This document shows positions 3,717 through 20,570 of a stretch of 39,361 nucleotides of DNA, one piece after another. The stretch lies in IMG/VR virus record IMGVR_UViG_3300038974_000844, positions 1 through 39,361 of that record; one strand, 5' to 3'. A program made the translations under genes and the position numbers. Position 1 is the stretch's first letter. Every line of letters starts with the position of its first letter. The DNA comes from a virus. Taxonomy: Duplodnaviria > Caudoviricetes. The notes beneath the pieces were generated by a model, which made no database searches, was not told the DNA's origin, and saw only the letters and a list, made by a program, of their open reading frames with translations.

Positions 3717-4055
3717 GGATACAGCTAAGCCATCTCCTATAGAATATTTTGGTGAAGATGGAAAACCCCATAAATATTTATGGGCCCATAAATACTTTGA
3801 AAGTACTTATGGTCCCATAAGTACTTTCCTGATTTTGTAGTAGAGGGAGGCTTTGTAGAAATAAAATCAAATAACCTCATAACAGAGAACGGCTTTCTAT
3901 GTACATGGAGCGGAGAGAAACAGATAGCAAAAACTCAGTTGCTAGAAAAGTTAAATGTCATTTTTATGAAGAATGAGGAAATTAAACCTATCCTGAATTA
4001 CATTAGCTCTAGATATTCAAGCAAGTACTTGCAGAGCTTTCAGGTGAAAAAATAA
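3714..4055 (+). pseudogene. Decayed PD-(D/E)xK homing endonuclease between the intein halves
   Basis: No start codon. Reads IEYFGEDGKPHKY, then after a 47-nt frameshifting duplication HKYFPDFVVEGGFVEIKSN...QVKK* (TAA 4053-4055). Confidence 0.8.
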
Positions 4056-8783: not shown

Positions 8784-9907
8784 TGACTAAGCTCGAAATT
8801 CTCTTGCAATATCCTTTGCGCAGAATCCGCGATAGCTGGATAGCGTTAGGGTCGTTAGAGATCACGGCTACTTCACGTATATATAATAAGGAACAGATAT
8901 ACAAGGTTAATAATCCATCAAGCAATTTGCATGGATATGTACTATTCTGCACTCAAGAGTATATTGGGAATGATTTAGCTTGGAGTAATGCTACCATAAC
9001 AGATGCTCAGTATGGAGAGATCTCTTTCGGTAATAATATTGTATCCCCTAATTTTACCATCATTCTTTCAGCTGATGAGTTTAACTCTATTACCGACCCT
9101 GTCGATCCTACATTTATTCCCTTTCAGGAAGAATTCCAACAAACAACTGATCTTATTATCGATGATGATGAGCTAAATATTATTCTCGCGGATATAGGTA
9201 TACCCTTTATTCGTTTTGATGAATTAGAATACTCGCGCCAAGACTTAGTTAATAATTTTATTAAGCCCGCTCTTCAGGAGTACTTTAAATGGTTTCCTAA
9301 GGTAGTAATACAATCGTATCCTATTACGTCTACTGCTGTTCATGAGCACGAATTTCCTACTGATGCATATAGCGTTGTGCATGTAGGTATTCAGCAGGGA
9401 ATAGCACAAGGAACTACATCTAATATTCTTCTCAGATATTTTGACGAGGTTATTTGGAGTAGTCAATCCCCTGTTACCGGGCATATGGGTGGAAGAAACT
9501 CTCCTCGAACGCACACAGGAAGCTGGGGTGCTATGATGCTTGATAGAGCAACGCGACAAGGTATGATTAACTACGCTTCTCGTGTGCACCACCAAGTCAT
9601 AGAAAAACATGGCAAGAAATATTTATCCACGTATACAAACAAAACTGGTCAGCTACAAGTTCATTATGCCGTTAAATCTAATAACTGGAATGATATAGAA
9701 TATGCGCGATTACCAGAAGCACGACGATTAGCTGGAGCGTATGTTATGAAGGGATTGGGAGCAATTAGATCTCAAGCCAAGAATGATATCCCTGGCTCGG
9801 TTGACTATTCTGAATGGATTAATCGTGCTGAAAAGATTCGTGAAGAAGTAATTACTGACTGGCAGAAGTTGGTGAAGTTCTCGGGTATTATACGAGGTTC
9901 CTTCTAA
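8783..9907 (+). CDS. Neck/head-completion protein (T4 gp13-like) with N-terminal extension
   Basis: IKPALQEYFKWFP and the C-terminal DYSEWINRAEKIREEVITDW resemble gp13-family blocks. Confidence 0.55.
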   Translation: MTKLEILLQYPLRRIRDSWIALGSLEITATSRIYNKEQIYKVNNPSSNLHGYVLFCTQEYIGNDLAWSNATITDAQYGEISFGNNIVSPNFTIILSADEFNSITDPVDPTFIPFQEEFQQTTDLIIDDDELNIILADIGIPFIRFDELEYSRQDLVNNFIKPALQEYFKWFPKVVIQSYPITSTAVHEHEFPTDAYSVVHVGIQQGIAQGTTSNILLRYFDEVIWSSQSPVTGHMGGRNSPRTHTGSWGAMMLDRATRQGMINYASRVHHQVIEKHGKKYLSTYTNKTGQLQVHYAVKSNNWNDIEYARLPEARRLAGAYVMKGLGAIRSQAKNDIPGSVDYSEWINRAEKIREEVITDWQKLVKFSGIIRGSF

Positions 9908-10182
9908 TAGACAAAACAATTAAAAGCATCGTAGGCAAAAGCCCTATCAAACCGCTCGTATGTGTAGTAACGCATTTGACCAATTGCTAATTATTATGCA
10001 CCCTTTGCTTTCGAGTTTCTTTTTCCGCGGTTGAAAGGGAATCATGATTCAATGCCAATTTTTTCAATTCCTTTTAAAATCTTTTTTTTCTTTTCTTTTT
10101 TTCTTTTACCATTTTTACCACCCTGTATCCACGGTATAAGAAAATAATTCAAATTCTAAAAAATTGCTTTTATATTATTTGC

Positions 10183-10779
10183 ATGTTGGAAATTAGGAAC
10201 ACAGAAGTATTTGGGTTATCTCGAGCGCTGGTTGCATCGGGTAATCCTATGAGAGTAGGTGAAATAGACACGCTTGATCCAGCAACTACTTTAGATGATG
10301 AACGTGCCAGAAAGCTATGCAAGATGCCTGATGGCTCAGGACACCTAAACTTTCTTTCAGGTATTACTGTAATGTTTGATGTAAAGTACTCGCAGTATTG
10401 GTCGATAGAATTCCAGCGATATCACTTTGCTCAAATCGTATCGTCTACTAGCAAGATGCATAGACTAGTTGCTCATGCTTCAACAGACGAGTTTGCCAAA
10501 AGCTTTAACAAATATGTAGATGACGATGCAATTAATCGCGTTCGCGACTATGTTACTATGTATAGTAATGCAGCTGATCCTGAAGAAAAGTATCACTATT
10601 TCATGAAGGCTCTTAGTAATCTACCTCTCGGATATGAGTTATGGATGACAATCAACACAAATTACTTGCAATTACGAACCATATATCATCAACGAAAAAA
10701 TCACAAATTAAAAGACGACTGGGGTTATTTCTGCAACTGGGTTGAGGAACTCCCTCTAGCTCGGATGCTGCTTCTCTAG
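10183..10779 (+). CDS. ThyX-like (flavin-dependent thymidylate synthase fold) protein, divergent phage type
   Basis: GSGHLNFL, EFQRYHF..IVSSTSKMH, LPLGY, TNYLQLRTIYHQRKNHKL. The canonical RHRx7S motif is diverged. Confidence 0.65.
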   Translation: MLEIRNTEVFGLSRALVASGNPMRVGEIDTLDPATTLDDERARKLCKMPDGSGHLNFLSGITVMFDVKYSQYWSIEFQRYHFAQIVSSTSKMHRLVAHASTDEFAKSFNKYVDDDAINRVRDYVTMYSNAADPEEKYHYFMKALSNLPLGYELWMTINTNYLQLRTIYHQRKNHKLKDDWGYFCNWVEELPLARMLLL

Positions 10780-11375: not shown

Positions 11376-13709
11376 ATGCGTACACTGATAGAAGCGGAAA
11401 TTACTTCCGAAAAATTAACCCACATGACCCATACAGAGGATCTCTATCTATTTGGGGATACTGCAGGCGAATTCGCTGTTACAGCTCTTATGGATGTATC
11501 CAATGCTCTACACGGAGAAAAACACAATACCACTATTTCTCGCAAGTGGGATGGAGCTCCTAGCTGTGTGGCGGCTTCTGATTTTAATGGAGAAGCTTTT
11601 GTTGCTACAAAGGGATTCTTTGCAAAGGATCGCAAAATAGCCTACACAGAAGAAGATGTGGATACCTACTTTGGGCATGCTCCTGATCTTGCGCGCAAAA
11701 TGAAAAAGCTTCTTTCCTACGTATCTCTTATTAATATTCCTTCTGGAGAGATTTGGCAAGGTGATTTTCTATTTGATAGTGAGACAGTAAAGCTCGAAAC
11801 TATCAATGGTGAGAAAATGCTCACCTTCCATCCTAATACTATTATATATGCTATTCCTGTAACTGATCCTCTTGCACGAAGAATTTCTCGAGCAGATATT
11901 GGAGTAGCGTGGCACACCAAATACCAAGGTCGAGATTATAATTCTCTGCATATAGGTTTCGGAGTTAGTGTGGATGATCTCAATGATGTTCCTGGAGTGT
12001 TTCAGGTAGATAGTAAAATTCCTAATCTGCAAGAAGAAACTCTTTCTGACGATGAAAAAACTACAATACATATTCTCCTTCAAAATATACAAAGTCTCTT
12101 TGAAGAAGTAAAAGCTCTAGGAATACTAGAAACTATTTCTCACGATACAGCTCTACAAAAGTATCTTCTTACCTATCGTAACTTTCTCATTAAAACTAAG
12201 AATGTGGAGGAGGAAGACGAATTCGTCGATGGAATGATTTCCTGGGTATCAGATGCATTTGATAAGGAAATTACAAAGAAGAAGCAACAAGAGACACGTG
12301 ATGCCTATGAAGCAAAGAAGCAAGAAGAAATACAAAAAATTGAATCTCTACGCGAGGAAATTTCACGTGTAGTTTTACTACAAAACGAAACGCGCAAAGC
12401 AAAAGAATTTTTCGTAAAGAAATTAAATTCATTAGGTAATTTTAGGACATTGGTAAAGCATATTGACCAAGGATACCTGCCAACAGGGGAAGAAGGCTTC
12501 GCCATTAGTGATGCAGAAGGTAATATTCAAAAATTCGTATCCCGACTTGAATTCTCTAAAAATAATTTCTCACAGGAGATTGTAAAGGGCTGGATGAGTG
12601 ATGCTCGTATGAGGGAAAAGATTACTGTAGGAGATGTGCAAAGTTTTTTAGGGGGAATGGATCGTTTTTCAATAAAAAGTGCTCCTCAATCCCAAAGAAC
12701 CAAAGGAAATATTACGGTACTTGATAATGAAAATAATCGTGAAGAAGCTTTAATGCTAGCAAAAGATTTGGCCAGCAAGCAACTTCCTCTCGAAAATATT
12801 AGGAGGTCAAGAAGAGATCTCACCCTAGATGATGTAAATCTTATTTTTAAAAACGCTTCAACTTCCTCAGGCAATAAAGGAATACAGTTTGAGGAAGAGA
12901 TACTGAGTAAAATAGAAGAAGGGGATCGTTCTTATCCGGGAGTTGGGGGAGTGGAAAAAATTCTACAAAAGGAATTTAATTCTTCTCTCGAAGATATAGT
13001 TTCCGTAATTCCCTTGGGTGCGGCCAACACTAGAAGGCCCTTATCACTGTCTCAGCTAAAAAAAGGAACTTTAGTTTGCCTGCCTAAAGGAGTTACGGAT
13101 TTTAGAGACGGGGATGCTATAGCGGAGGCTTTAGCGGATGGGGCTTTGCAACTTAAGAATGGTCAGCATATTCCTCTCTCTATAAAACATTCTGAAAAGG
13201 TTTCTCTCATTAATGCCGGACTCTCTGCAGGGGTAAGAAACCCGGATCTAAGGCAGAATGAAGTTAAAAAAGATATCATAATAAATATCTGCGAAGCCTT
13301 AAGCCCTGAAATAGACACACAAAAAGTAATTCAAGGATTTATTGATTTTTATGAGAAAAGAGCTTCAATAAATTACGATTCCGAGCAGCAGCGACGCGGG
13401 TCTACTATTAATAAAATCCCTATAACTCTTAACCCCGATGTTTTTGCTAACCTATTAATATCCGCCACGGGCTTTAATTATATTATGATACATGATGAGC
13501 ATGTGTTTTATATGAAAAAGTCTTTGGTCGAAAAAATGGCTAGAATACGAGAAGCAACTGTGGCTTACCCAGATAGCACCAGGGGTCGGTTTGATCTTCA
13601 CTTTGAAGCGGTGGGCATGAAGGGAATAATCACTTTAAGGGACACCAACGCAGACGGGTGGGTTGATAAACTTCTTATAGAATATGATTCAAAGGGAATA
13701 TTAGTATAG
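11376..13709 (+). CDS. Fusion: N-terminal KxDG ligase-like nucleotidyltransferase domain (T4-like phage family, recalled as DUF6267) plus C-terminal restriction-endonuclease-like domain
   Basis: N half has HMTHTED, KWDGAPS, QGDFLF, FHPNTIIY, EEGF and KFVSRLEFS. C half has NKGIQFEEEI...ADGAL...PLSIK. Confidence 0.6.
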   Translation: MRTLIEAEITSEKLTHMTHTEDLYLFGDTAGEFAVTALMDVSNALHGEKHNTTISRKWDGAPSCVAASDFNGEAFVATKGFFAKDRKIAYTEEDVDTYFGHAPDLARKMKKLLSYVSLINIPSGEIWQGDFLFDSETVKLETINGEKMLTFHPNTIIYAIPVTDPLARRISRADIGVAWHTKYQGRDYNSLHIGFGVSVDDLNDVPGVFQVDSKIPNLQEETLSDDEKTTIHILLQNIQSLFEEVKALGILETISHDTALQKYLLTYRNFLIKTKNVEEEDEFVDGMISWVSDAFDKEITKKKQQETRDAYEAKKQEEIQKIESLREEISRVVLLQNETRKAKEFFVKKLNSLGNFRTLVKHIDQGYLPTGEEGFAISDAEGNIQKFVSRLEFSKNNFSQEIVKGWMSDARMREKITVGDVQSFLGGMDRFSIKSAPQSQRTKGNITVLDNENNREEALMLAKDLASKQLPLENIRRSRRDLTLDDVNLIFKNASTSSGNKGIQFEEEILSKIEEGDRSYPGVGGVEKILQKEFNSSLEDIVSVIPLGAANTRRPLSLSQLKKGTLVCLPKGVTDFRDGDAIAEALADGALQLKNGQHIPLSIKHSEKVSLINAGLSAGVRNPDLRQNEVKKDIIINICEALSPEIDTQKVIQGFIDFYEKRASINYDSEQQRRGSTINKIPITLNPDVFANLLISATGFNYIMIHDEHVFYMKKSLVEKMARIREATVAYPDSTRGRFDLHFEAVGMKGIITLRDTNADGWVDKLLIEYDSKGILV

Positions 13710-13716
13710 TTGAATG

Positions 13717-13736
13717 CTGATAGGATAACCTATCAG
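13717..13736 (+). promoter_or_regulatory. Perfect hairpin just upstream of the cytidyltransferase RBS
   Basis: CTGATAGG-ATAA-CCTATCAG, then TTTC GGAGG AAAA ATG. Confidence 0.6.
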
Positions 13737-13749
13737 TTTCGGAGGAAAA

Positions 13750-14409
13750 ATGAACAAAAAAAACAATATTTACAGGAGGTTATTGACCGAAGAAATTCAG
13801 CGAAATAAAACAGCTGCATTTGTCTTCGGTCGATGACGATTTAACCCTCCAACGATTGGGCATCTCAAACTTATAGAAACATTAGCCAAACAACCTGCGG
13901 ATGATCATTTTGTATACCTCTCTCACTCTCAGGATAATAAAAAGAATCCACTACCATACGATAAGAAACTATTCTACGTTAAAGAGTTTTTTGAGAAAAC
14001 CATTCCTAATGTACGGGTTGTTGAATCTGATTCCAAGACAGCAGTGCAAGTGCTCGGCGAATTGAATGGGAAATATGATTCTATTATCCTTGTGGCAGGT
14101 GGAGATCGCATAGAAGATTTCGACAGGCTTCTTAACGCATATAATGGTGTTCCTACTAAGACAGGGGAGATCCTGTATCAATTTGATTTCATTGACGTAG
14201 TGTCAGCAGGAGAACGAGACCCTGAAGCAGAGGGTATAGAAGGAATGAGCGCAAGCAAATTGCGGGCTTTTGCACAAGCGAATGAATTTGACAACTTTGC
14301 TCAAGGTATTCCTACAGATGATAAGGAATTAGCTCATAAATTATTTACTGATATTCGTGGAAATTTAGCTCATGTTCGGGAAAGCGCATTAGACCCCATA
14401 CAACGATAA
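13750..14409 (+). CDS. Cytidyltransferase-like (HIGH superfamily, NMNAT-like) protein interrupted by in-frame TGA at 13834-13836 (recoded gene or pseudogene)
   Basis: GGAGG then ATG 13750: MNKK...TAAFVFGR*RFNPPTIGHLKL...SHSQDNKKNPL...VAGGDR...SAGERDP...GMSASKLR. In frame with the tracked ORF 14044..14409. Confidence 0.88.
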
Positions 14410-17186: not shown

Positions 17187-18206
17187 CTAGGTAATTTCGC
17201 AACTACCTCCAGAGCAAGCAAGCTCACCCATAAGGCTTGTGTCATCTTGCATCTCTACTACCCCAGAAAGATCCACTTCATACAAATGCTTAACAGCTTC
17301 CTCATACTCCTCTTTTGTACACGTTTCAAAGGGAGCTTGAATATGAGATCCGTTGTCATAGGGAAGTACTGCAATGCCATTATAATGCTCGCGGTTTTCC
17401 CACATCCATTGTCCTACTGTATCCCACTCATCATCTTTCACGTTAATAGTGCAGGATACATTATTCTTGTTGATACCCTTCTTATGCCCTGGAACAATCC
17501 AATGTTGATACAGATACTTAACACGCTCCAGAGTATCGATTGCAGACTCGCTTCTTAGAACAGCCCCTTTAGGAGCTTTCATAGGAACTTTAATTACTCC
17601 TGTAGTATTAGGTTTGAAAAAGTCATCTTCAATCAACTCAGGATGCATAATCGAGAGGTATTTATATATTGCTTCGTCCTTTCCAACACGTACACGCCTC
17701 CAGTAATATTCATCATACCAGGCATGTACACCAGACGAGGTACCAAAAATAAGCGATGCTGTACCCGAGGGTTTGAGCACGGTACTTCGGGAGCTAGGAT
17801 TAATACCGAGCAGCTTAGCTACGCGTCTGTTCTCTTTTACTACTACCCTCGCTGCAGAATCGAGATCGTAGTCTTTTAAATGCTCACTAGCAACACCAGT
17901 TAATGATACGCCGATAAGCGCTTCTTTTTCTGTGGTATCTTTCCACTCATCTCTCAGGTAATGAAAATCCGTATAGCTAGATTGCAGAGTGGCTATAAAT
18001 GCAGCTGCTTTAGCGCGTTGCTCAAGATCCTCTTGAGACTCAACAGTTCCAAAATTAATTTCTACGAGATTGCAGAACTGATTAGCGCGCAAAGAAACCT
18101 CTCCGCAATTATGAACCACAATATCATTCGCGTAAAAATTATGATTATCCTCTACGGTAATATCATATACATCTTCTTTATTATCTAAATATTCAATAGT
18201 AAGCAT
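17187..18206 (-). CDS. nrdJ: Split-intein C half plus class II (B12-dependent) ribonucleotide reductase C-terminal part
   Basis: VYDITVEDNHNFYANDIVVHN|CGEVSL...FCNL, TVLKPSGTAS, QAPFE, C-terminal ACSGGSCEI. Confidence 0.95.
   Translation of the reverse strand: MLTIEYLDNKEDVYDITVEDNHNFYANDIVVHNCGEVSLRANQFCNLVEINFGTVESQEDLEQRAKAAAFIATLQSSYTDFHYLRDEWKDTTEKEALIGVSLTGVASEHLKDYDLDSAARVVVKENRRVAKLLGINPSSRSTVLKPSGTASLIFGTSSGVHAWYDEYYWRRVRVGKDEAIYKYLSIMHPELIEDDFFKPNTTGVIKVPMKAPKGAVLRSESAIDTLERVKYLYQHWIVPGHKKGINKNNVSCTINVKDDEWDTVGQWMWENREHYNGIAVLPYDNGSHIQAPFETCTKEEYEEAVKHLYEVDLSGVVEMQDDTSLMGELACSGGSCEIT
18108..18206 (-). mobile_element. Split intein C half (33 aa, +1 Cys)
   Basis: MLTIEYLDNKEDVYDITVEDNHNFYANDIVVHN|C. 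Confidence 0.93.
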
Positions 18207-19231
18207 TCTAACTCCTCTTTATTTGTTTTTTGAAGAAAACCCCAATTTTTAGGTTTCTCTTCAAATGTTAAACAAAAATTATAACCAAGCTCTTCGCATT
18301 GAGGAATGGCCGGTATCAATTTGTTTTTAATATAGTCTTCACCCTGTCGAAAAAAGGTTCCTTTAACTTCCACAACCCAAGGCTTTCCAAACTTATGTAT
18401 AATAAAATCTGGTCTATAGGAACCCCCGTTTGCTGTATCTAATATTAGCTCTTCATAATCCCACACTACTTTTTGTTTTTCAAAGAATTTAATATAATTT
18501 TCCTCATACCCAGAGCGCAATTGAATAAGGGTTAACCCCCTTTTATTGTACTTTAAATCCTTTAATAGGGGCCTTTTATAAAAAGAAGTCCTTCCCGCAG
18601 AATGAGGAATACTGATGGTGTTTAAACCCCACACAAAAAATTTAAACTTTGAAAAATCCTCTGGGTTTAGGTTTTGTATAAATTGTTTGTCAATTTTTCC
18701 AGGATATCTTTTTATGAATCTTTCACGACACTCAGGGGAAAAACCAGCAATCATTCTTAGCAAAACATTAACAACATTGTCTTTCTCTTTGTTTCTGGCA
18801 CTTAACATTTTAGAAAAACTAATATTGACATTTTCAGCATCTACTTTAATTCCTTTATTTTCTAACACTTTTTTTCTAAATTCAAAAGTATTAACTTCTT
18901 TATTGTGCAATTCTCCTTTTTTCATTAAGCCTGTTAAGGGGCTGTCTTCCTGTGATGCCAATTCTTTCATTCTTTTGGAGTGTTGAGGTCTTTTCCTGCA
19001 ATCAGGATTATCACATGCGGGGTATAGAAAAGGTATTCCATTTTTTCTTTCTACCACAGAACGGGGTTTTCCACAGGCACAAAACAAATCATCATACGTT
19101 CTGTCTCTTTTCTTTGTCTTTACATTTCTGCTTGTTAAATACCCCAGTAAAAAAGAAGTATCAACCCCCATCTTTTTACTCAACTCATCAATTTTTTTAA
19201 TAAATTCCTCTGTTATATCTCTTTTGTACAT
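18185..19231 (-). CDS. Free-standing PD-(D/E)xK homing endonuclease between the nrdJ halves
   Basis: RSGYE...WDYE...YRPDF...VEVKG plus an N-terminal Cys cluster (CACGK...CDNPDC). Lys-rich and AT-rich. Likely ATG at 19231. Confidence 0.85.
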   Translation of the reverse strand: MYKRDITEEFIKKIDELSKKMGVDTSFLLGYLTSRNVKTKKRDRTYDDLFCACGKPRSVVERKNGIPFLYPACDNPDCRKRPQHSKRMKELASQEDSPLTGLMKKGELHNKEVNTFEFRKKVLENKGIKVDAENVNISFSKMLSARNKEKDNVVNVLLRMIAGFSPECRERFIKRYPGKIDKQFIQNLNPEDFSKFKFFVWGLNTISIPHSAGRTSFYKRPLLKDLKYNKRGLTLIQLRSGYEENYIKFFEKQKVVWDYEELILDTANGGSYRPDFIIHKFGKPWVVEVKGTFFRQGEDYIKNKLIPAIPQCEELGYNFCLTFEEKPKNWGFLQKTNKEELECLLLNI

Positions 19232-19234
19232 GAC

Positions 19235-19277
19235 CACCAATCCTTGTGTATCTTATTAGTTAGTACAAGGATTGGTG
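19235..19277 (-). promoter_or_regulatory. RBS-sequestering hairpin with a promoter-like motif in its loop
   Basis: CACCAATCCTTGT-ACTAACTAATAAGATAC-ACAAGGATTGGTG-GTC-ATG; perfect 13-bp stem with AAGGA in the 3' arm. Confidence 0.8.
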
Positions 19278-19283
19278 ACAAGT

Positions 19284-20570
19284 TTACTCGTTGATTTCTA
19301 AAACGTCTGTTTCTTTTAAATACCGGGCTTCTACGTATCCCCTATTTTTTGTGAAAATCTTATGATCTGGTGTGCAGGTTACGCTGTTGCCCTTTTCATC
19401 GGTTACTTTCATAAGAGAAGCATTCTTTTTTGTCAGAGCAGCCGCTGTTATTTTCTTGAATTCCTTCTGCCCTGTTTTTTCATTAAAAGATAAAACTTCC
19501 AGCGATTCACCGGATGTAGCTAGTGAAACTACATCTTTCATTTGCATAGTTTCTTCATTGCCATCAAATCTAACTGCGAGCTTCGTGTTGCCGACCACGC
19601 AGGGGTTAGTTCCCCACTCTTCTGAATTACTAAAAAAGATTCCTGGCTCCCCGGATCTGCTTGCTTGAATCTTTTTCCAAAGATCAAAGAACACCTCTTC
19701 GTCAATTTGACTCCGCAACACCATCGCACTATTGTTGGCAAGAGCTCGTTGGGGGTTTAACTCCCACCAATTGCCGAACTTAGACTCAAGCATTTCCGTA
19801 TCATCGAGAGAAAAAAGAGAAATCATTGCTGAGCGGCGTATCCCTCCGCTGAGAACAGCTTCTGCTATATAGCACATAATATCATGAACTTCGATAGGCT
19901 TAAGCTGACAGGCTCTTCCTCGTTCTTGAATAGCATTTTCAAATACAGAAATAATTTTAACAAGACATTCTCGCAGTGGCTCTGGTCCAGGAGCCCTTCC
20001 TCCACTAGTTAGCAGCAATGATCCTTTGGATCTAATATCTCTGAAATCATAATCGATTTCACGCTTATTGTAGAAATAAGACTCTACAAGCACCTTAATA
20101 GCATCTGCCCATCCTTCAATGGAATCGCCAATAAGGTATCGTCTCTTGCGTTGTCTCCCTTCAGGACGCTGCACTCCCAGTACCGGAGGAAGCTTTCGTA
20201 CATGATGTTTTTGTACTGAAAATCCAACCCCCGTCCCGGAAAGCAGCAACTCCATAGCTTCAGAAAAAGCATCAGGATGGTCCATGTGCATAAAGCTACA
20301 GTTATAGATACGGATAGGGTTTAACTCAATTGGCTTACCCGCGAATTGCATACTACGCATAGAAGGTAAGTTCTTTTTATCGTATATAAATTGATATGCA
20401 TCTTCAATTTCTTCCTTCAATTCAGGAAACTTTTTAAGATGCATTGCTTTGTTTCTGTCTACAATTTCTGGCCACAATTCTCTACGCTGCTTATCTGGTA
20501 AATACTTTGCGTATTTCATATAAGCAATGATATCACTAAAAATTTGTGAAGACAAGGGTGGTTCTTTCAT
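19284..20570 (-). CDS. nrdJ: Class II ribonucleotide reductase N-terminal part plus split-intein N half
   Basis: LPSMRSMQFAG, YNCS, GTGVGFSV, GGRAPGPEPL, GGIRRSAMI, SGEPG, TNP|CVVG. Confidence 0.95.
   Translation of the reverse strand: MKEPPLSSQIFSDIIAYMKYAKYLPDKQRRELWPEIVDRNKAMHLKKFPELKEEIEDAYQFIYDKKNLPSMRSMQFAGKPIELNPIRIYNCSFMHMDHPDAFSEAMELLLSGTGVGFSVQKHHVRKLPPVLGVQRPEGRQRKRRYLIGDSIEGWADAIKVLVESYFYNKREIDYDFRDIRSKGSLLLTSGGRAPGPEPLRECLVKIISVFENAIQERGRACQLKPIEVHDIMCYIAEAVLSGGIRRSAMISLFSLDDTEMLESKFGNWWELNPQRALANNSAMVLRSQIDEEVFFDLWKKIQASRSGEPGIFFSNSEEWGTNPCVVGNTKLAVRFDGNEETMQMKDVVSLATSGESLEVLSFNEKTGQKEFKKITAAALTKKNASLMKVTDEKGNSVTCTPDHKIFTKNRGYVEARYLKETDVLEINE
19287..19601 (-). mobile_element. 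Split intein N half (class 1, Cys1, 105 aa)
   Basis: CVVGNTKL...VTCTPDHKIFTKNRGYVEARYLKETDVL. Confidence 0.93.

Follow-up and report, generated by a model that had tools for sequence, protein, structure and literature searches.

A candidate in-frame stop-hop, CGA to CGA over six bases, in a phage nucleotidyltransferase gene

Synthetic "stop-hops" were described in E. coli by Weiss et al. in 1987 as low-level events in constructs without stimulators, and a 2016 recoding review, in its accessible text, proposes that in-frame stop-hopping could underlie some apparent readthrough and knows of no natural case (PMC5009743 for both). No later report of a natural in-frame stop-hop was found in the literature searched (most subscription papers lie outside it), and the same search returned no report of recoding in the nucleotidyltransferase family described below. 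Longer gaps are bypassed in T4 gene 60, where the top pairs of a 5' stem-loop form just outside the exit channel and completion of this stem-loop is proposed to pull the mRNA (accessible parts of PMC5009743 and of 10.1101/2024.12.09.627546). For gene 60 homologues, a further preprint reports that the bypass insert shields DNA against the nuclease of the element itself (10.1101/2022.08.31.505936). Among natural cases the closest short one is the terminase of Streptomyces phage phiHau3 (PMC10732093), in which gaps of 7-10 nt at a conserved junction shift the frame, the A-site trigger is a rare UUA codon, and a 5' stem-loop with a flanking internal Shine-Dalgarno sequence as well as a regulatory role are proposed.

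The window analysed here is the whole stretch of 39,361 nt, a phage contig that encodes PolA, a primase, a class II ribonucleotide reductase and the sheath and tube proteins. Most of the runs in which the stretch occurs have bioreactor, landfill or plain metagenome as their label, and no RNA run is among those listed. Positions 13750-14409 encode the "cytidyltransferase" known from T4-like phages (PF01467 at 32.2 bits, where the cut-off is 21; phrog_3041, E 1.5e-53). A model of its read-through protein has phosphopantetheine adenylyltransferase (PPAT) as best structural match (3otw, Z 14.8, rmsd 2.7, 151 residues aligned), and both the T/HxGH motif and the PPAT/NMNAT Rossmann-like fold of CTP_transf_like (HIGH) nucleotidyltransferases are present in the gene. 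The FGRFNPPTxGH active-site motif is interrupted, the codons across the site being GGT CGA TGA CGA TTT AAC CCT. Re-reading of the sequence confirmed the CGA-UGA-CGA arrangement, the codon coordinates and the good ribosome-binding site given in the original prediction. The parts of the gene are as follows.

13741 to 13752, plus strand: Shine-Dalgarno sequence GGAGG (13741-45), 4-nt spacer and ATG at 13750, read from the sequence and paired in the predicted 260-nt fold
13750 to 13836, plus strand: ORF1 of 28 codons, from ORF calling and model, comprising a 17-residue N-terminal extension, strand beta-1 (TAAFVFG) and Arg, and ending in UGA
13831 to 13833, plus strand: CGA in the sequence, the putative take-off codon
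13834 to 13839, plus strand: six extra bases seen by alignment, the UGA stop at 13834-36 (context UGA-C) and CGA at 13837-39, the putative landing codon
13840 to 14409, plus strand: rest of the HIGH-type nucleotidyltransferase (FNPPTIGH ... SAGERD ... MSASK), from PF01467, phrog_3041 and the PPAT fold

Strand beta-1 corresponds to residues 21-27 of the model, and the break falls between it and the NPPTIGH loop with the HxGH helix. The 17-residue extension is absent from the nearest homologues; the stretch 13750-13794 (YRRLLTEE) is similar to the xxFxxE leaders at the N-terminus of marine homologues. Within it, at 13758-13764, A AAA AAC forms a classic -1 slippery heptamer, 10-14 nt ahead of the stem described below; the -1 frame stops at about 13806, never passing the UGA.

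TGA terminates six of the 31 genes in the window, in three of these cases sharing bases with the start that follows (ATGA or TTGA), and thus the genetic code is standard and the UGA a genuine stop. The frame 3' of it is open for 190 codons to 14409 with its earliest in-frame start 70 codons on, and gene callers give a 119-121 aa product from an internal start (GTG 14044). These internal starts and the AUGA overlap at 13833-36 bring up a group of routes that we consider very improbable taken together: a reassigned or selenocysteine-coding UGA, re-initiation at AUG 13833 or GTG 14044, or a 28-residue peptide that complements a separate C-terminal part. Restart at the overlapping AUG was rejected, as it yields only M-T-I-stop, and the product from GTG 14044 would come without beta-1 and HxGH. 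Selenocysteine insertion and reassignment were rejected because TGA is used as a stop here, because two codons are extra and not one replaced, and because the RNA 3' of the UGA folds weakly (13831-13900 reaches only -4.4 kcal/mol, with no stable hairpin and no tetraloop); an Rfam search near the site gave two chance-level rows, none near threshold. Internal starts are also seen in two homologues, in P0012 (119 aa, 9,290-nt contig), at about the same place as in the fragment of the window, and in P0007 (177 aa, 147-kb contig), just after the motif Arg; these may be further interrupted copies or merely start-calling choices.

In the alignment with 118 homologues, the two insert columns are occupied by the window protein only. 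The X-stop-X form spends nine bases on one residue, and dropping two codons restores the family alignment. The insert is identical to the preceding six bases at five of six positions. The original prediction had read the matched CGA codons as a hallmark of bypass, an argument that lost weight when matched flanks appeared in all 558 simulated 6-nt tandem duplications: they are automatic for any such duplication. The middle codon was one change from a stop in 228 of the 558. A duplication origin does not decide function, and a later change to a stop could have rescued a dead insertion. The site is the only X-stop-X among 13 stops between long frames in the contig. A stop near the motif is absent from all 133 homologous loci collected in IMG/VR and JGI, which together with the window make up 104 distinct regions, and two pattern scans of IMG/VR, for the 6-nt insert or for R-stop-R, gave no match. 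The T4-like "cytidyltransferase" of PHROG 3041/395 shares family, motifs, fold and a DUF6267 neighbour with this gene, but at none of the 133 loci the stop at the motif.

We favour a natural in-frame stop-hop from CGA to CGA over the six bases, with a rough probability of 0.55. In such a hop the UGA would wait in the A site while the peptidyl-tRNA-Arg releases the first CGA, slides six bases and re-pairs with the second CGA, whereupon translation would resume. A fraction of ribosomes would in this way make the exact family motif FGRFNPPTIGH, and the remaining ones would stop and release the 28-residue peptide. Decoding of CGA relies on a weak I:A pair, and in E. coli a UGA with a C after it is a weak stop. 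CGA is also found in other slippage sites; no literature value was found for hop efficiency at CGA or for the leakiness of UGA-C in bacteria. None of the 118 homologues has an insertion at this site, and the break separates beta-1 from the HxGH helix, so that a hop alone yields the consensus spacing. The CGA-to-CGA hop of the original prediction stands as the likeliest route to a consensus enzyme, and the frame appears maintained in a second strain (X4, below), but three of the arguments offered for it, the matched codons, the stem with its G-U pairs and the likeness of its placement to that in gene 60, are weaker than had been stated.

Plain readthrough, in which a near-cognate or phage-encoded suppressor tRNA reads the leaky UGA-C and an enzyme lengthened by two residues (G-R-X-R-F) still works, is in our estimate improbable, although it would explain the signal of purifying selection given below equally well and could draw on the weakness of UGA-C. 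If the gene works, the hop is favoured over readthrough, since none of the 118 homologues carries extra residues and this loop forms the PPAT-like fold's signature for nucleotide binding; nor is there a tRNA gene in the 39-kb contig, a result for this part of the genome. A model with Trp at the stop has pLDDT 85-90 over residues 21-40, but AlphaFold confidence says little on small insertions and such a model cannot separate hop from readthrough. The clade does tolerate motif changes: three of its nine proteins match the motif consensus, against 106 of 110 elsewhere. By eye, however, seven clade proteins have 7 of 37 deviations within about 7 of the 53 conserved columns, which is no clear enrichment, so that hypervariability of the motif in this clade is only partly upheld.

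Contigs (not raw reads) from four runs, X3, X4, X6 and X9, were compared at the site, which lies outside the coverage of the contigs of X6, X17 and X19. The CGA-TGA-CGA is spanned unchanged by a 23,877-nt contig of X4 (2013, another study, depth 17) and by a 372-nt piece of X9 (another study, depth 3.2). Assembly error was thereby ruled out and the bases of the original prediction are real, at the level of contigs from two other studies. The allele is present in runs of 2013, 2021 and 2023. X3 holds the insert plus an extra T behind 13829, which would shift the frame; at depth 2.6 this is either real decay or an error.

The main competitor of the hop is a young pseudogene: a 6-nt duplication or a hairpin-driven template switch, together with one substitution, would have killed a dispensable gene that has been drifting since, and the stem would be older, serving initiation control or nothing. 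The near-perfect duplication with its automatic flanks agrees with this, as do the extra T in X3 and the lack of the gap in any other lineage (133 loci and the IMG/VR pattern scans). Selection 3' of the stop points the other way. X4 differs from the window there by five synonymous changes and one conservative change (V77A), an excess with P = 0.020 under a transition-only neutral model and 0.003 with all changes, for a test of six sites in one strain pair into which recombination could import synonymous changes. Adding X6, which does not span the stop, gives a union of 7:2 (P about 0.01). Four of the six X4 sites are common to X6 and, among the matches listed, three to X11 or X19. Moreover, no intact near-identical allele was found: the best full-length match is 70% identical, the 90% cluster to which the window protein belongs consists of just two internal-start fragments, and a search with residues 1-48 gave no close intact form among 53 matches. 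With no intact allele closer than 70%, no intact donor is seen for the synonymous changes of X4. Nor is there decay at conserved columns, as the protein is off-consensus at three of 53 highly conserved columns (118 homologues), and the nearest intact homologue, P0003, has the same three changes. The persistence of the allele from 2013 to 2023 and an additional substitution falling exactly on the codon that would turn a dead insertion into a skippable one also sit poorly with drift. The original prediction had named two signs that together would speak against a bypass, absence of the insert from relatives and relaxed downstream selection; the insert is indeed absent from the close relatives X10 and X11, which are intact, but relaxed selection was not seen. 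We therefore judge that the gene is probably functional, the downstream frame looking maintained in X4 with the same stop, and that the pseudogene is unlikely, though a reading to be taken seriously.

A long RNA stem surrounds the site, with these predicted elements.

13770 to 13780, plus strand: internal Shine-Dalgarno-like 11-mer (AGG AGG codons) at the foot of the stem, read from the sequence and mostly paired in the fold
13779 to 13793, plus strand: 5' arm of the 15-bp stem, predicted fold
13794 to 13820, plus strand: inner hairpin (7 bp, 11-nt loop) ending 9-10 nt before the putative take-off codon, predicted fold
13823 to 13837, plus strand: 3' arm with the V-F-G-R codons, the UGA and the first base of the second CGA, predicted fold

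The 11-mer is identical to the ribosome-binding site of the Hsp20 gene (10873-83). The two arms form 15 contiguous bp, among them G-U pairs at 13784/13832 and 13781/13835; the pairing probability is 0.53 at the outermost position and 0.87-1.0 at the other 14. Folding bore out the 15-bp stem with two G-U pairs and the inner AAU/AUU and CAGC/GCUG pairs, all in the minimum free energy structure (-33.3 kcal/mol, z -4.77, 0/200 shuffles as stable). The stem takes in the first CGA and the UGA as had been noted and, as a correction, the first base of the landing codon as well. None of 3000 synonymous recodings folds as stably (three have a helix of at least 15 bp), and thus the stem exceeds chance given the protein. 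Among other 120-nt coding windows of the contig, 15 of 482 are as stable and two contain a helix of at least 15 bp. Across 103 distinct homologous regions z does not go below -4.5 and no helix exceeds 14 bp, the values for the region here being -6.1 and 15; three intact related homologues (L065, L077, L079) have 14-bp helices in the same region.

Several roles ascribed to the stem were weakened by the analysis. It does not need the insert and is nearly as stable in its absence, as the pseudogene reading would have it: 12-13 pairs do without the six extra bases, and the stability is -30.8 kcal/mol without them against -31.8 with them. The G-U pairs had been held to favour selection at the RNA level, but one of the two lies on the G of the conserved Arg codon, so that protein constraint explains that pair. 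Conservation of X-stop-X and covariation of the stem among homologues were likewise not borne out (none of 133 loci; no covariation, the carriers being identical in the module and the relatives being without it), and with a single lineage and no covariation the weight of the case is limited. Since the take-off codon belongs to the 3' arm and is within the ribosome at that point, the stem cannot be a take-off hairpin of the gene 60 type, as its placement had been read; it could act only behind the ribosome. The long stem could not exist while the ribosome is on the take-off codon. According to the prediction, the inner hairpin forms immediately behind the ribosome and acquires about five more pairs over the six-base move. 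The folding energy of the mRNA freed from the ribosome changes during the hop from -8.0 to -11.9 kcal/mol if the footprint is 9 nt, and from -6.1 to -8.5 if it is 12 nt. Completion of the hairpin may push the ribosome forward, like the 5' stem-loop of T4 gene 60, and the full-length protein would then be made by hopping with the aid of the stem. This stem-stimulated, programmed form of the hop we propose only tentatively, as it is somewhat doubtful.

Compared with the synthetic stop-hops, the X-stop-X working would be the same, but here it would be natural, in an active-site motif and with an upstream stem. The site shares with gene 60 and the MobA cassettes codons that match at take-off and landing (CGA and CGA, also expected from any 6-nt duplication) and a stop directly 3' of take-off (UGA 13834-36). 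The 5' stem-loop of gene 60 lies about 9 nt before take-off, and the inner hairpin here 9-10 nt before it, with a predicted gain of 2-4 kcal/mol over the hop. A mini Shine-Dalgarno sequence (GAG, GGG, GGA or AGG) stands 5-7 nt before landing in gene 60/MobA; here the triplet at 6 nt is GGU, part of the Shine-Dalgarno consensus and outside the four triplets of the preprint. The KKYK nascent-peptide region of gene 60, some 30 residues before take-off, may be compared by eye with the basic KKNNIYRR from 25 residues before, in a peptide of only 28 residues. On the other hand, there is no take-off hairpin with the codon on its 5' side and a tetraloop, and no 3' barrier to forward slippage (13840-13910, -5.4 kcal/mol). 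The gap is 6 nt and in frame instead of 20-50 nt, and the take-off codon is Arg CGA instead of Gly or Asp. The host gene is of PF01467 and its neighbour contains a fused restriction-enzyme-like domain, unlike the topoisomerase large subunit and HNH MobA homing endonuclease of gene 60. Three defining features were thus looked for and found absent, and the site is not a member of the gene 60/MobA cassettes. With phiHau3 the site has in common the short gap and an internal AGGAGG at the foot of the stem resembling the flanking internal Shine-Dalgarno sequence, but the trigger here is a true stop and the gap keeps the frame.

The beginning of the gene is replaced in close relatives. The following features lie upstream of or across the break.

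11376 to 13709, plus strand: upstream gene of 777 aa, N-terminal DUF6267 (PF19782, E 7.5e-69, residues 15-399) and C-terminal nuclease-like domain
12663 to 13706, plus strand: predicted restriction-endonuclease-like domain of HinP1I/MspI type, from a model with pLDDT 86 and structural matches
13709 to 13841, plus strand: lineage-specific 133-nt module, with 35 nt in its place in X10 and X11 (joint 13708/13842 in both runs)
13717 to 13736, plus strand: perfect 8-bp hairpin just 5' of the ribosome-binding site, from sequence and fold; no terminator was called here by the scan

The end of the upstream gene matches the window at 98% identity in X10 and 95% in X11, and in both runs the 35 nt, by eye, make up a short intact start (MTKTVAFTF, I or M, RA) that overlaps the upstream stop. 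Identity to the window is 56-59% over 32 alignable bases by our own count and 90-92% just after. The right edge of the module is at the insert, within 2 nt of the landing codon; so the 8-bp hairpin, the ribosome-binding site, the 17-residue extension, the 5' arm of the stem and the insert form one derived module. The X6 contig leaves the window at 13705, in the end of the upstream gene, into other sequence with a small hairpin, and the junction after the upstream gene thus exists in at least three versions (window, X10/X11, X6). A blastn search of 50,697 phage records with the module came up empty, and nothing in the homologous loci truly matched it. Three of three syntenic relatives (L100, L101, L106; 53-63% identity) have the gene intact at the same place, with short gene starts close to or overlapping the upstream gene. 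Searches of IMG/VR with the upstream gene and the tail sheath gave no close relative, and a GTDB scan one unrelated weak match.

The nuclease-like model resembles HinP1I (Z 8.6, rmsd 4.9, 205 residues aligned) and MspI (Z 6.9), Foldseek hits for it are not significant (E 0.012 and 0.04), its Atlas neighbours include RE_HaeIII, HinP1I and MspI clusters at 10-19% of members, and E77, D159, S173 and K175 are invariant in 20 sequences. Sequence searches of Pfam and PDB gave no name for the domain, and the assignment to a HinP1I/MspI-type fold, based on narrower structural searches, is of moderate confidence. The N-half of the upstream gene is 66% identical to L106 and 51% to L100, whose C-halves are another domain without significant match; L101 has a separate unrelated gene in place of the nuclease-like domain. 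The domain occurs free-standing in other phages, in L071 upstream of DUF6267, and X10 and X11 share the nuclease end of the window with a different module. For distant loci, a Pfam search of 79 among the 104 distinct upstream ORFs gave no homing endonuclease; of the remaining ORFs 24 are DUF6267-like by tblastn, that of L101 being left out. In L100, the Hsp20 gene is separated from the homologue of window 10183-10779 by a nuclease-like ORF with a GIY-YIG-looking start by eye (9682-10575, minus strand); the window is without it at the matching place.

The swapped C-half, the free-standing occurrence and the HinP1I/MspI-like model make target protection possible. Nothing was found in support of the proposal that the stop sets enzyme dosage, and the likeliest purpose of a hop would be to tolerate a DNA change in a conserved motif rather than to tune the dose of the enzyme. 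Such a change might, on slight grounds, block cutting by the nuclease domain encoded just upstream, although that domain may simply attack host DNA. The full scenario, a programmed minimal bypass with a stem-driven hop that arose to shield the motif DNA from the phage's own HinP1I/MspI-like nuclease while keeping the consensus protein, with sister strains escaping by amino-acid changes, is rather unlikely. If the hop is true, it would be a natural case of an effect so far shown only in laboratory constructs and, at 6 nt, the smallest possible bypass, which fits a 150-nt reporter cassette. It would also allow a direct test of whether mRNA pairing behind the ribosome drives take-off without the A-site hairpin of gene 60. 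Furthermore, some phage genes annotated as pseudogenes or as truncated, here the 119-121 aa fragments, would be functional.

Two other regions of the window deserve mention. A 13-bp perfect inverted repeat with a 4-nt loop lies between two genes at 3799-3828. The class II ribonucleotide reductase (17187-20570, minus strand) is split over two genes, the first ending with an intein N-part and the second beginning with an intein C-part, with an endonuclease-like ORF (18185-19240) between them. This layout, the same in L106 (6-3087), resembles the "fractured gene" split-intein arrangement. A 15-bp imperfect hairpin at 19233-19279 covers the predicted start of the endonuclease-like ORF and could repress its early translation.
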